Assembly: GCA_026110335.1 (NCBI GenBank)
Contig: GCA_026110335.1_3055.1
Reading direction: 5' to 3' (one strand)
Length of the DNA stretch: 64,000 bases
From: a phage
The notes below the pieces were generated by a model. It was not told where the DNA came from and did no database searches. It worked only from the letters and a program-made list of their open reading frames with translations. This document shows positions 16,803 through 27,375 of the stretch, in pieces. The translations under genes were made by a program, and so were the position numbers. The first letter of the stretch is position 1, and each line of letters opens with the position of its first letter.

Positions 16803-16810
16803 TATAAATA
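16803..16810 (+). promoter_or_regulatory. late promoter (TATAAATA) for gene 34
   Basis: Exact TATAAATA about 35 nt upstream of gene 34 ATG. Confidence 0.6.
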
Positions 16811-21841: not shown

Positions 21842-21845
21842 ATTG

Positions 21846-21870
21846 AGGGAGCCTTCGGGTTCCCTTTTTC
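21846..21870 (+). terminator. intrinsic terminator after gene 35
   Basis: GGGAGCC-ttcg-GGTTCCC hairpin followed by TTTTTCTTT. Confidence 0.55.
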
Positions 21871-21872
21871 TT

Positions 21873-21880
21873 TATAAATA
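21873..21880 (+). promoter_or_regulatory. late promoter (TATAAATA) for genes 36-37
   Basis: Exact TATAAATA upstream of gene 36. Confidence 0.6.
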
Positions 21881-21903: not shown

Positions 21904-22560
21904 ATGGCTGATTTAAAAGTAGGTTCAACAACTGGAGGCTCTGTCATTTGGCATCAAGGAAATTTTCCATTGAATCCAGCCGGTGACGATGTACTCTATA
22001 AATCATTTAAAATATATTCAGAATACAATAAACCGCAAGCTGCTGATAACGATTTTGTTTCTAAAGCTAATGGTGGTACTTATTTAAATAAAGTAATTTT
22101 TAATAAAGGAATGACTGTTCCTGGCGCAGGGTCAGGCGATAACGGTATTTTTGCTGGTCCTGGTGATAGTGCCACGTATGATACTACAAATATGGATATT
22201 GTTTCGTGGTATGGTATTGGTTTTAAATCATCACAAGGAACAGCAGGTAGAACTGTAGTAATTAACACACGAAATGGAGATATTAGCTCAAAGGGCGTAA
22301 TTGAAGCATCACAAATCCGTGTAACTTCGTTATCACCAGTAAATAATTATGACCTTACGCGGAAAGATTATGTTGATGGAGCAATAAATATTGTTACAGC
22401 AAACGCAAACTCTAGGGTATTACGCTCTGGAGATACTATGACAGGAAATTTAACTGCGCCAAACCTTTTTTCACAGAATCCTGCATCTCAACCCTCGCAT
22501 GTTCCACGATTTGATCAAATTGTTATTAAGGATTCTGTTCAAGATTTCGGCTATTATTAA
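21904..22560 (+). CDS. 36: long tail fibre distal connector gp36
   Basis: 218 aa; position and size. Confidence 0.85.
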   Translation: MADLKVGSTTGGSVIWHQGNFPLNPAGDDVLYKSFKIYSEYNKPQAADNDFVSKANGGTYLNKVIFNKGMTVPGAGSGDNGIFAGPGDSATYDTTNMDIVSWYGIGFKSSQGTAGRTVVINTRNGDISSKGVIEASQIRVTSLSPVNNYDLTRKDYVDGAINIVTANANSRVLRSGDTMTGNLTAPNLFSQNPASQPSHVPRFDQIVIKDSVQDFGYY

Positions 22561-22568
22561 GAGGACTT

Positions 22569-25500
22569 ATGGCTACTTTAAAACAAATACAATTTAAAAG
22601 AAGCAAAACTGCAGGAGCACGTCCTGCCGCTTCAGTATTAGCCGAAGGTGAATTGGCTATAAACTTAAAAGACCGCGTACTTTTTACTAAAGATGACCAA
22701 GGAAATATTATTGATCTGGGTTTTGCTAAAGGCGGTAGTATTGACGGGAATGTTATTCATACAGGTAATTATAACCAAACCGGCGATTATACTTTAAATG
22801 GCACCTTCACTCAGACAGGTAATTTTAATTTAACTGGTATTGCTCGAGTAACTCGCGATATTATTGCCGCTGGGCAGATTATGACTGAGGGCGGAGAACT
22901 TATTACAAAAAGCTCAGGTACAGCGCATGTTCGTTTTTTCGATAACAATAGCCGCGAACGTGGAATCATTTATACCCCGGCCAATGATGGTTTAACTACA
23001 CAAGTACTTAATATCAGGGTTCAAGACTACGCCGCTGGTGATGAAAGCACCTATGCATTTTCGGGCAGTGGCCTATTTACTTCACCTGAAGTATCAGCAT
23101 GGAAATCTATTTCGTCTCCACAAATTCTGACCAACAAAGTCATTACAAATGGGAAGAAGACCGGCGATTATGACATTTATTCATTATCAAATAACACTCC
23201 AATGGCAGAAGGCGAAACGGCTATTAACCACCTCCGTGTTATGCGAAATGCTGTAGGAGCAGGTATTTTCCACGAAGTTAATGTTAATGACGGAATAACC
23301 TGGTATTCCGGAGATGGCTTAGACACTTATCTTTGGTCGTTTAACTGGGCCGGTGGATTGAAAGCAGGCCATTCTATTTCTATAGGTCTTCCGGGTGGCT
23401 CTAAAGGATATTCTGAATTAGGGACTGCCTCAATTGTTCTTGGGGATAATGATACCGGATTTAAATGGCATCAGGACGGATATTATTTCAGCGTTAATAA
23501 TGGAACAAAAACGTTTTTATTTAGTCCCAGCGAAACAACTAGCCTAAGAAAATTTGTAGCTGGATATTCTACTAACGGAACCGATTTAACTACTCCTCCA
23601 ACTGAAAACTATGCTTTGGCCACTGTTGTTACTTACCATGATAATAACGCGTTTGGAGACGGTCAGACTCTTTTAGGATATTATCAAGGTGGTAATTATC
23701 ATCATTATTTCCGCGGTAAGGGTACTACAAACATTAATACTCACGGTGGTTTGTTAGTTACTCCTGGTAATATTGACGTTATTGGTGGTTCTGTTAATAT
23801 TGATGGTCGTAATAATTCTTCTACGCTGTTGTTTAGAGGTAACACGACCGGAGCTAGTTCAGTTGATAATATGACAATTTCCGTTTGGGGCAATACGTTT
23901 ACTAATCCTAGTGTAGGTAATCGTAAAAACGTCATGGAAATTTCTGACGCAACTAGTTGGATGAGCTATATTCAAAGACTTACAACAGGTGAAGTAGAAA
24001 TGAACGTTAACGGTTCATTTGAATCATCTGGTGTTACTGCTGGAAATAGAGGAGTTCACACAACAGGCGAAATTTCATCTGGAGCAGTGAATGCGCTTCG
24101 TATTTGGAATGCAGATTATGGAGCTATTTTTAGACGTTCAGAAGGTAGTCTTCATATTATTCCAACTGCTTACGGTGAAGGTAAACATGGTGATATCGGT
24201 CCACTTCGCCCGTTTAGTATGGCTTTAGATACCGGTAAAGTTACTATTCCAGATTTACAATCAAGTTACAATACGTTTGCTGCTAACGGTTATATTAAAT
24301 TTGCTGGTCATGGAGCGGGTGCCGGCGGTTATGCTATTCAATATGTTCAAGCAGCTCCTATTTTCCAGGAAATCGATGATGATGCTGTAAGCAAATATTA
24401 TCCTATTGTTAAACAGAAGTTTTTAAACGGTAAAGCTGTCTGGTCTTTAGGTACTGAAATTAATTCGGGTACATTCGTTATTCATCATCTGAAAGAAGAT
24501 GGTTCACAAGGCCATACGTCTCGTTTTAATCAAGACGGTACTGTTAACTTCCCAGATAACGTTGCTGTCGGCGGCGGTGAAGCTACTATTGCTCGTAATG
24601 GTAACATCTGGTCTGATATCTGGAAAACGTTTACTTCAGCTGGTGACGTAACTAATATTCGCGATGCTATTGCTACTCGCGTTGCCAAAGAAGGCGACAC
24701 GATGACAGGCCGTTTAACTCTTAATGCCAACTCGGATGCTATTATTATTAACAGTGCTGCAACCGAATCTTGTTATGTGAAAGGACAAAAAGCGGGCGTT
24801 AATAACTGGTATGTTGGTAATGGTGGGGCTGATAATGCCATATCGTTTTATAGTTTCCGAAATAATTCAGGCATAATTGTTAATAATGGTGGCGATATTG
24901 CTTTAAACCCAGAAGGGTCAGCCACTTTTAATTTTAATAGGGACCGACTTTTTATTAATGGCTCTGTCTGGACCAGTCACCAGGCCGGCGATTGGGGAAA
25001 TCAATGGCGCCAGGAAGCTCCGATATTTGTGGATTTTGGCTACGTCGGTAATGATAGTTATTATCCAATTATCAAAGGAAAATCTGTTATTACGAATGAA
25101 GGATACGTATCTGGTGTTGATTTCGGTATGCGCCGTATCACTAATACTTGGGCACAAGGTATTATCCGTGTAGGTAATCAGGAAAACGGTTCCAGCCCAC
25201 AAGCTATCTATGAATTTCACCACAATGGAGTTATGTATGTTCCTGACATGGTTAAAACTGGAGCAAGATTATCAGCTGGCGGTGGTGACCCGGTGTGGAC
25301 TGGACCATGTCTTGTTATTGGTGATAATGATACCGGATTAGTTCATGGTGGTGACGGTCGTATTAACATGGTTGCAAATGGAATGCATATTGCTTCATGG
25401 TCGTCCGCTTACCATCTCCATGAAGGTCTTTGGGATACCACTGGTGCTTTGTGGACTGAACATGGAAGAGCTATTATTTCTTTTGGTCATTTAATCCAAC

Positions 25501-25880
25501 AAAGCGATGCCTATTCTACATATGTTCGAGATGTTTATGTCCGTTCGGATATTCGTGTTAAAAAAGACCTTGTTAAATTTGAAAATGCTTCTCAGAAGCT
25601 TTCTAAAATTAACGGTTACACTTATATGCAGAAGCGAGGCCTAGATGAAGAAGGCAATCAGAAATGGGAACCTAACGCCGGTTTAATTGCTCAAGAAGTT
25701 CAAGCTATTTTACCAGAATTAGTTGAAGGTGACCCTGATGGCGAAGCTTTACTTCGTTTGAACTATAACGGTGTAATTGGTTTAAATACAGCTGCAATCA
25801 ATGAGCATACTGCAGAAATTGCAGAACTTAAATCAGAAATCGAAGAACTTAAAGCATTAGTTAAATCATTGTTAAAATAA
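22569..25880 (+). CDS. 37: long tail fibre distal subunit gp37 with C-terminal intramolecular chaperone-like domain
   Basis: 1103 aa; conserved N-terminus; C-terminal about 110 aa (SDIRVKKDL...) resembles the self-cleaving chaperone domains of endosialidase-type fibres. Confidence 0.9.
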
Positions 25881-25911
25881 TAAGAGGGGCTTCGGCCCCT
25901 TGGAGGTTTAT

Positions 25912-26688
25912 ATGGCAGTAACAGGACCATGGGTAGGATCGTCTGCAGTAGTTAATACAGGACAAAATTGGATGGGTGGCGCGGCCCAACGATTAAGAAT
26001 GGGTGCTCCATTTTGGATGAGTAATATGATAGGTCGATCTGTTGAAATAATTCACACGCTTGGAGCAGACCATAACTTCAATGGTCAATGGTTCCGAGAT
26101 AGATGTTTTGAGGCAGGTAGTGCACCTATAGTGTTTAATATCACTGGAGATTTAGTATCATATTCTAAAGATGTTCCTTTATTCTTCATGTACGGAGATA
26201 CACCGAATGAATATGTTCAACTGAATATACATGGTGTAACGATGTATGGCCGTGGCGGGAATGGCGGTAGCAATGGTCCTGGCTCAGCTGGAGGTCATTG
26301 TATTCAAAACGATATTGGTGGGAGACTAAGAATTAATAATGGCGGAGCTATCGCAGGCGGTGGCGGTGGTGGCGGTGGTGGGTATTATTCTCCTACGAAA
26401 CCAATGAAATTAACCTTTGGTGGTGGTGGCGGTCGTCCGTTTGGTGCTGCTGGTGGATCTGCCAACATGCAATCAGGCGCAACTGCTGGTACTCTTTATG
26501 CGCCTGGTTCGGGGTCTGTAAACGGTGTCTACAATGGCGGAAACGGTGGCGAAGTTGGCTCCGCAGGAGGTAGATGTAATATTCGTGGTCAAGGATCTGA
26601 ACATAATGGCGGAGCTGCTGGTTATGCCGTCATAGGGTCTACACCGACATGGCAAAACGTTGGAGCAATATATGGTCCAAGAGTATAA
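25912..26688 (+). CDS. 38: gp38 receptor-recognising adhesin, T2-type (glycine-rich)
   Basis: 258 aa from ATG with GGAGG RBS; conserved N-terminal region and multiple poly-glycine motifs typical of T2-like gp38. Confidence 0.85.
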
Positions 26689-26718: not shown

Positions 26719-27375
26719 ATGGCAGCACCTAGAATATCATTTTCGCCCTCTGATATTCTGTTGGGTGTTCTAGATCGCTTGTTCAAAGATAACGCTACCG
26801 GGAAGGTTCTTGCTTCCCGGGTAGCTGTCGTAATTCTTTTATTTATGATGGCGATTGTTTGGTATAGGGGAGATAGTTTCTTTGAGTACTATAAGCAATC
26901 AAAGTATGAAACATACCGTGAAATTGTTGAAAAGGAAAGAACTGCACGCTTTGAATCTGTCGCCCTGGAACAACTCCAGATAGTTCATATATCATCTGAG
27001 GCAGACTTTAGTGCGGTGTATTCTTTCCGCCCTAAAAACTTAAACTATTTTGTTGATATTATAGCATACGAAGGAAAATTACCTTCGACAATAAGTGAAA
27101 AATCACTTGGAGGATATCCTGTTGATAAAACTATGGATGAATATGCAGTCCATTTAAATGGACGTCATTATTATTCTAACTCAAAATTTGCTTTTTTACC
27201 AACTAAAAAGCCTACTCCCGAAATAAACTACATGTATAGTTGTCCATATTTTAATTTGGATAATATCTATGCTGGAACGATAACCATGTACTGGTATAGA
27301 AATGATCATATAAGTAATGACCGCCTTGAATCAATATGTGCTCAGGCGGCCAGAATATTAGGAAGGGCTAAATAA
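26719..27375 (+). CDS. t: holin
   Basis: 218 aa; single N-terminal TM segment and large C-terminal domain; position after gene 38. Confidence 0.9.
   Translation: MAAPRISFSPSDILLGVLDRLFKDNATGKVLASRVAVVILLFMMAIVWYRGDSFFEYYKQSKYETYREIVEKERTARFESVALEQLQIVHISSEADFSAVYSFRPKNLNYFVDIIAYEGKLPSTISEKSLGGYPVDKTMDEYAVHLNGRHYYSNSKFAFLPTKKPTPEINYMYSCPYFNLDNIYAGTITMYWYRNDHISNDRLESICAQAARILGRAK

Follow-up and report, generated by a model that had tools for sequence, protein, structure and literature searches.

In the T-even phages the name gene 38 can stand for two different proteins, a chaperone as in T4 or a receptor-binding protein of the tail fibre as in T2. Which of the two is encoded at 25912..26688 of the 64,000-nt stretch of phage DNA analysed here (the window; all features given below are on its plus strand), and which host receptor would it serve? 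[quoted passage not shown]

The open reading frame is intact, running from an ATG at 25912 through 258 codons to a TAA stop (26686–26688). The mechanical list of open reading frames opens this frame at an upstream TTG (25900); we favour the ATG as the start because the homologues all begin MAV. A GGAGG Shine–Dalgarno sequence, read from the DNA, lies at 25902–25906, 5 nt 5′ of the ATG. Glycine makes up 34% of residues 113–258 versus 11.6% of residues 1–112, and the receptor-binding half of the gene (26248–26685) has a GC content of 52% against a window mean of 35.5%, a local GC island that arises from its 63 Gly codons.

The gene product exceeds the curated Pfam thresholds for both adhesin domains. 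Residues 1–40 match the whole of Gp38_N (PF21721; E=1.8e-21, 76.3 bits with a cut-off of 25, profile 1–40 of 40), and residues 45–258 match the whole of GP38 (PF05268; E=3.3e-72, 243.3 bits with a cut-off of 25, profile 1–218 of 218). [quoted passage not shown] An AlphaFold2 model built on an alignment of 76 homologues has a mean pLDDT of 91.3, and a Foldseek search of the PDB with this model retrieved the same two structures, 9V85 at E 1.7e-27 with a target-normalised TM score of 0.88 and 6F45_D at E 5.9e-24 with a TM score of 0.80; that search gave no third fold match, the next entry having E 2.5. By prediction, gp38 folds as a β-helix plus a polyglycine-II (PGII) sandwich, the same fold as PP01 and S16 gp38 (TM 0.8–0.88). 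Fifty columns are invariant among the 76 homologues and the window protein keeps all of them, including the Gly motifs and RP(F). Membership of the family is thus directly observed in sequence and, by way of the model, in fold, and the view of the initial annotation that this is the T2-type adhesin architecture and not the T4 chaperone is borne out by the two Pfam families and by the sequence and predicted fold matches to PP01 and S16.

According to the T4 reading, gp38 would be a non-virion chaperone that folds gp37, with gp37 itself binding the receptor. What can be said for it is limited to the gene name and the location after gene 37, together with the fact that homologues still carry the name 'distal long tail fiber assembly catalyst' in some database records. 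T4 gp38 is a protein of 183 aa that is absent from the virion (NC_000866 note; PMC6851490), and it shares with the window protein no more than the place of its gene, which lies between gene 37 and t. BLASTP against T4 gp38 returns E=1.8 with a best alignment of 12 residues, and whereas the window protein hits the adhesin families, a Pfam search with T4 gp38 at E≤0.01 finds nothing. An NCBIfam scan found no match for either protein, and with T4 gp38 matching neither database there is no positive T4-type profile to compare against. The window gp37 ends in an S74 intramolecular chaperone and not in a His-rich needle tip, while T4 gp37 is without an S74 domain and has a His/Ser/Gly-rich C-terminus unrelated to that of the window gp37. 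We therefore reject the T4 chaperone reading on the BLASTP comparison and on the type of the gp37 C-terminus, and regard it as next to impossible. We assign an equally negligible probability to the idea that the gene is decaying and non-functional and that its Gly runs are degenerate or of low complexity. The high Gly content would fit such an idea, and a run of nine Gly codons could slip in replication. However, the frame is intact, its length falls within the class of the relatives (256–264 aa), every invariant column is retained, the model is confident, and an identical protein comes from an independent read set. Furthermore, the Gly codons are mixed and form no simple repeat, using all four GGN codons (GGT 29, GGC 15, GGA 14, GGG 5).

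The adhesin begins with a predicted N-terminal attachment domain (residues 1–40; 25912..26031; Gp38_N and AlphaFold2) of three helices, placed by the model at residues 8–16, 21–27, and 36–39. Each helix starts right after Trp7, Trp20 or Trp35, and these three tryptophans are invariant in 10 references that include S16, whose N-terminal Trp 'prongs' insert into gp37 (PMC6851490). The attachment domain is followed by a conserved central part (residues 45–112; 26044..26247) defined by the alignments, which is modelled as the first β-helix rungs (AlphaFold2 strands, pLDDT 84–96), the β-helix domain name being taken from the PP01 and S16 structures. The initial annotation had described a conserved N-terminal region. 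This description fits residues 46–112, which are nearly invariant in Tequatrovirus and Krischvirus relatives, but not residues 1–45, which occur in at least three allelic forms.

The synteny around gene 38 is likewise directly observed: gp36 (21904–22560), gp37, gp38, and holin t follow one another on the plus strand. Gene 37 (22569..25880) encodes a subunit of 1103 aa with Pfam matches to gp37_trimer, Gp34_trimer and Peptidase_S74; it is labelled the distal long-tail-fibre subunit in relatives ~94% identical, and its trimer is the expected partner of gp38. Gene 38 starts (25912) directly downstream of the end of this S74-bearing gene (25880). The C-terminal intramolecular chaperone of gp37 spans residues 993–1103 (25545..25877), with the Peptidase_S74 match at residues 993–1052 (2.3e-12). 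The gp37 motif DVYVR^SDIRVKK lines up with DLNVS^SDRRIKK, the autocleavage site of S16 (site position from PMC7917993), and given this alignment mature gp37 is predicted to end at R992. Hence, we infer autocleavage between R992 and S993, which would expose the tip onto which gp38 is predicted to dock. Downstream, the canonical neighbour is holin gene t (26719..27375; Pfam Phage_holin_T, 4.9e-117). The flanking 16 kb are ~94–95% identical to the best genomes of the phage collection, for example Tequatrovirus KMB40 and RB27.

The gp37 C-terminal type (25728–25877) and the allele of gp38 residues 1–45 (25912–26046) co-vary in 10 of the 10 phages compared. They sort into three linkage groups (PP01/S16-like, T6-like, and T2-like). 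By its gp37 end and attachment domain the window falls in the PP01/RB27 group, yet its receptor-binding domain is T6-like.

The transcription signals of the locus were also examined. A T4 late-promoter motif, TATAAATA, was located by motif search upstream of gene 36 (21873..21880), and no further copy of the motif lies between 21880 and gp38, which suggests that genes 36, 37, and 38 share one late transcript. From its position, the motif at 21873 is the likely start of that transcript; the motif as such is no more frequent in the window than expected by chance (6 found versus 10.6 expected). A further copy at 16803–16810 lies just upstream of gp34 (16845). An intergenic hairpin, GAGGGGC-UUCG-GCCCCUU (25884..25901; −15.8 kcal/mol, z=−1.9), follows the gp37 stop codons and abuts the gp38 Shine–Dalgarno sequence, with no U-run after it on the plus strand. 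A second GC-rich UUCG hairpin (21845–21866) is found in the gap between gp35 and gp36, with a T-run and, beyond that, the motif at 21873 downstream of it. Either hairpin may act as a terminator, as an RNA stabiliser or in translational coupling. Scans for sigma-70 promoters and terminators around the gp38 locus gave counts at chance level, and scans of the whole 64-kb window, a stretch of a T4-like genome, found neither tRNA genes nor any Rfam family at the gathering threshold.

The remainder of gp38 (residues 113–258; 26248..26685) is the predicted receptor-binding or specificity domain, recognized by its Gly content, conservation and fold. The architecture of this domain, in which glycine-rich motifs (GRMs) alternate with hypervariable segments (HVSs), has been described for the T-even adhesins (Trojet 2011, PMC3157838) and for S16 (PMC6851490); the GRMs were counted as five by Trojet (PMC3157838), and S16 gp38 has ten PGII helices (PMC6851490). 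In the alignment of 76 sequences, invariant Gly, R175, P176, and G178 columns of the window protein alternate with columns in which no residue reaches a majority, and the C-terminal end is conserved in the reference alignments. Thus, the short variable segments that the initial annotation saw between poly-Gly motifs are real: the Gly motifs are nearly invariant and the segments interspersed among them lack a majority residue. The two poly-Gly motifs that it quoted are also exact letter for letter, one with nine Gly followed by YY (A148–Y159) and the other extending from F169 to residue 182.

The variable loops of the domain can be placed by alignment with PP01. Loop A, or HVS1, comprises residues 119–123, GSNGP (26266..26280), and corresponds to the PP01 loop A W119–I124. 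The nine-Gly run (residues 149–157; 26356..26382), read directly from the sequence, lies within GRM2 and corresponds to PGII helix 3 of S16, 151-GGGGGGGG-158. Loop B, or HVS2 (residues 159–168; 26386..26415), is the most divergent loop. It is followed by GRM3 (residues 169–182; 26416..26457), in which G170–G174, R175, P176, and G178 are invariant in the 76 sequences. Loop C (residues 182–187, GSANMQ; 26455..26472) forms the start of HVS3, and loop D (residues 203–207, VNGVY; 26518..26532) and loop E (residues 223–230, NIRGQGSE; 26578..26601) are mapped from PP01 in the same way. Just past loop E, in the motif SEHNGG, the window protein has His231 (26602–26604), where every close relative compared has Tyr. 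Among the 134 proteins retrieved, SEHNGG is confined to the query's own sequence or cluster representative.

That such variable segments determine receptor specificity, as the initial annotation held, is well established experimentally (PMC3157838, PMC12892980, bioRxiv 10.64898/2026.04.02.716166). The evidence comes from T6/PST and RB5/RB32 chimeras (PMC3157838), from the loops of PP01 gp38 (PMC12892980), and from gp38 swaps and the RB68 substitution Q206L, which alter the receptor (bioRxiv 10.64898/2026.04.02.716166). Similarity and phylogeny of the gp38 C-terminus also predict the receptor (PMC12032242; bioRxiv 2026.04.02.716166). We aligned the window gp38 with those of T2, T6, PP01, S16, RB27, FL23, FL04, FL20, fPS-65, Bas35 and others, with the OmpA class represented by FL20 and not by K3 or Ox2, and computed RBD identities over residues 113–258. 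The RBD is 89–90.4% identical to those of T6, FL04, FL23, RB27, and Bas35, whose receptor is Tsx; 91% to fPS-65, which uses LPS inner-core heptoses on Yersinia; 77–79% to FL20 (OmpA); 57.5% to PP01 (OmpC); 51–53% to T2 (FadL/OmpF); and 50.7% to S16 (OmpC of Salmonella). The receptor loops of PP01 and S16 are unrelated to those of the window, although the N-terminal half of PP01 gp38 is 90% identical to that of the window protein and the C-termini of the two gp37 proteins are nearly identical. T2 gp38 shares the family and the architecture and belongs to another gp37-tip linkage group, with an identity of 49% overall and 46% over residues 1–112. The label T2-type thus holds for the class, but the allele is T6-like and T2 itself is distant.

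The T6-like group (T6, RB27, RB14, FL23/FL44, FL04, Bas35 WilhelmHis, and CM8) consists of Tsx binders. Use of Tsx has been determined experimentally in the T6-like RB phages including RB27 (Trojet 2011, PMC3157838) and in FL04, FL15, FL23, and FL44 (Lutz 2025, PMC12032242), and was shown with complementation for WilhelmHis/Bas35 (Maffei 2021, PMC8594841). The window protein has the same domain order and the same GRMs as this group. Its HVS1 and HVS4 are in essence those of the group and of the T6 set, with one private change each (G122 and H231), and its HVS3 is close to the T6 set and over most of its length identical to the group's. The window differs from the group in HVS2, where TKPMK replaces F(S/P)QMR and four of the five core residues differ from the T6 set, and in P180A, I184A, I206V, and Y231H. 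Compared with T6 itself, the first 45 residues are of the PP01/RB27 form, and identity over residues 1–112 is 76%. The alignment check on the variable segments that the initial annotation proposed thus places gp38 in the Tsx class, its HVS2/HVS3 cassette being a variant. Because the receptor-binding half is a T6-like allele, we infer that the primary E. coli receptor is probably Tsx, the nucleoside channel. We hold this prediction at no more than probable because variant residues lie in the loops and switches of specificity by a few residues are documented.

A segmental comparison shows where the variant cassette begins and ends, as DNA identity along gene 38 shifts abruptly. Nucleotides 1–420 of the gene are 97–99% identical to phages 121/2022-2B and Ec_YwIITB1, the latter having a PP01-like distal half. 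Nucleotides 421–600 (26332..26511; GRM2-HVS2-GRM3-HVS3) are 95.6% identical to the Krischvirus phiS and 80% to 121/2022-2B and RB27. Nucleotides 601–777 are again closest to 121/2022-2B and RB27 (93.8%) and 79.7% identical to phiS. The gp38 proteins of 121/2022-2B and RB27, the best matches on either flank of the cassette, also rank highest in the phage collection when the full length is compared (94% and 92% aa identity). They share the gp37-tip type and the length of 258 aa, and the first 112 residues of the window protein are identical to those of 121/2022-2B and 96% identical to those of RB27. All 15 differences from 121/2022-2B fall within residues 122–232, and the central 180 nt are the stretch in which the two are 80% identical. 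The phiS gp38 (PP449093) is the only phage record that has SPTKPMK together with the whole GRM2-HVS3 block. The two proteins are identical over residues 123–202, and among the 134 proteins retrieved the SPTKPMK allele of HVS2 is common to phiS only. In contrast, phiS has a T6-form N-terminus (83% identity over residues 1–112), its distal quarter is the diverged segment, and phiS belongs to another genus. The mosaicism is observed directly, and on these comparisons gene 38 is a recombinational mosaic whose HVS2–HVS3 block is best attributed to a phiS-like (Krischvirus) lineage, so that 26332–26511 has the look of a cassette recombined between genera. The breakpoints fall within or close to conserved Gly motifs, in accord with Trojet 2011 (PMC3157838) and earlier work.

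The protein may be the same adhesin with another taste in receptors: the phiS-like HVS2/HVS3 cassette could have shifted or broadened its specificity such that the primary receptor is not K-12 Tsx alone. OmpA or another porin would then be candidates, as would LPS or a given Tsx loop variant found in wild E. coli. We consider this unlikely, yet credible enough to be weighed against the residues involved. The window protein differs from all of five T6-like references at 11 positions in the RBD and at none in the N-terminal part, and seven of these 11 private positions fall within the 34 loop residues mapped from PP01 loops A–E (hypergeometric p=0.0035). Such window-specific substitutions thus concentrate in the loops, above all in loop B/HVS2, and the DNA of the cassette is just 80% identical to that of the nearest relatives typed as Tsx binders. 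Adding FL04 to the comparison removes G122, L195, and Y196, leaving eight RBD residues that are absent from every Tsx-confirmed reference compared (T162, K163, P164, K166, A180, A184, V206, and H231). P164 aligns with T6 Q167, and G205/V206 align with T6 G208/I209. P164 and V206 are therefore at or adjoin T6 positions 167/168/208, where three substitutions in PST widen recognition to Yersinia and OmpA (PMC3157838). Together with RB68, in which the single HVS3 change Q206L switches the receptor from OmpF to OmpW (bioRxiv 10.64898/2026.04.02.716166), PST gives precedent for switches of a few residues. G122 and Y196 are also present in the OmpA binder FL20, but G122 and L195/Y196 occur as well in FL04, a confirmed Tsx binder.

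The overall typing weighs against such a shift. The RBD is ~90% identical to Tsx binders versus 77–79% to the OmpA type, and HVS1, HVS4, and most of HVS3 are unchanged. Trojet 2011 reports a single HVS set common to almost all Tsx binders, in which scattered differences are tolerated; RB5, for instance, is 11 aa away from PST and yet uses Tsx (PMC3157838). We considered fPS-65 as an OmpF counter-example and rejected it, as it is fPS-2 and fPS-90 that use OmpF, while fPS-65 depends on LPS inner-core heptoses on Yersinia (PMC7917993); its 91% RBD identity makes it a weak caveat to the Tsx call. We came across no receptor determined by experiment for either phiS or JoYop, whose central cassettes are the most similar to that of the window. 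The narrower proposal, that a phiS-like HVS2–HVS3 cassette in an RB27-like gp38 gives a specificity unlike that of the T6-like relatives, be it for another outer-membrane protein or for a Tsx loop variant, seems to us improbable. If true, it would be a natural change of specificity by Krischvirus–Tequatrovirus cassette exchange at glycine-rich motifs.

With Tsx as the probable receptor, we envision the following course for the adhesin. The genes for gp36, gp37, and gp38 would be expressed late. gp37 would trimerise with the aid of its own C-terminal intramolecular chaperone and then cut itself at R992^S993, and the three-helix N-terminus of gp38, with Trp7, Trp20, and Trp35, would plug into the gp37 tip so exposed. 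The C-terminal half of gp38 would then form a β-helix topped by a polyglycine-II 'sandwich' of the invariant Gly motifs, and the hypervariable segments between these motifs would make up five distal loops that touch the outer-membrane protein.

The gp38 protein itself is already known, in that its family, fold, mechanism, and recombinational behaviour have all been described. The window protein is 100% identical to NCBI EKC7973763.1, a 'receptor-recognizing protein [Escherichia coli]' that clusters at 90% identity with the RB27 and FL23 proteins among others, 76 members in all. An identical gp38 is also present in the Logan assembly of SRR22245981 (contig 253). The NCBI record lists this protein as one of 'Escherichia coli', on a contig of 73.8 kb, which suggests that a virulent T-even phage genome sits in bacterial isolate sequencing data and not in a phage record. 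What our analysis adds is the T6-like/Tsx typing and the phiS-like cassette. The central cassette is another natural case of the recombination between Gly motifs known for the T-even adhesins and raises no new question. For the biology of this phage, the finding implies that it would choose its host by a separate tip adhesin, and not by gp37, with Tsx as the probable receptor. Typing gp38 in this way serves annotation, the prediction of host range, and the choice and engineering of therapeutic phages.
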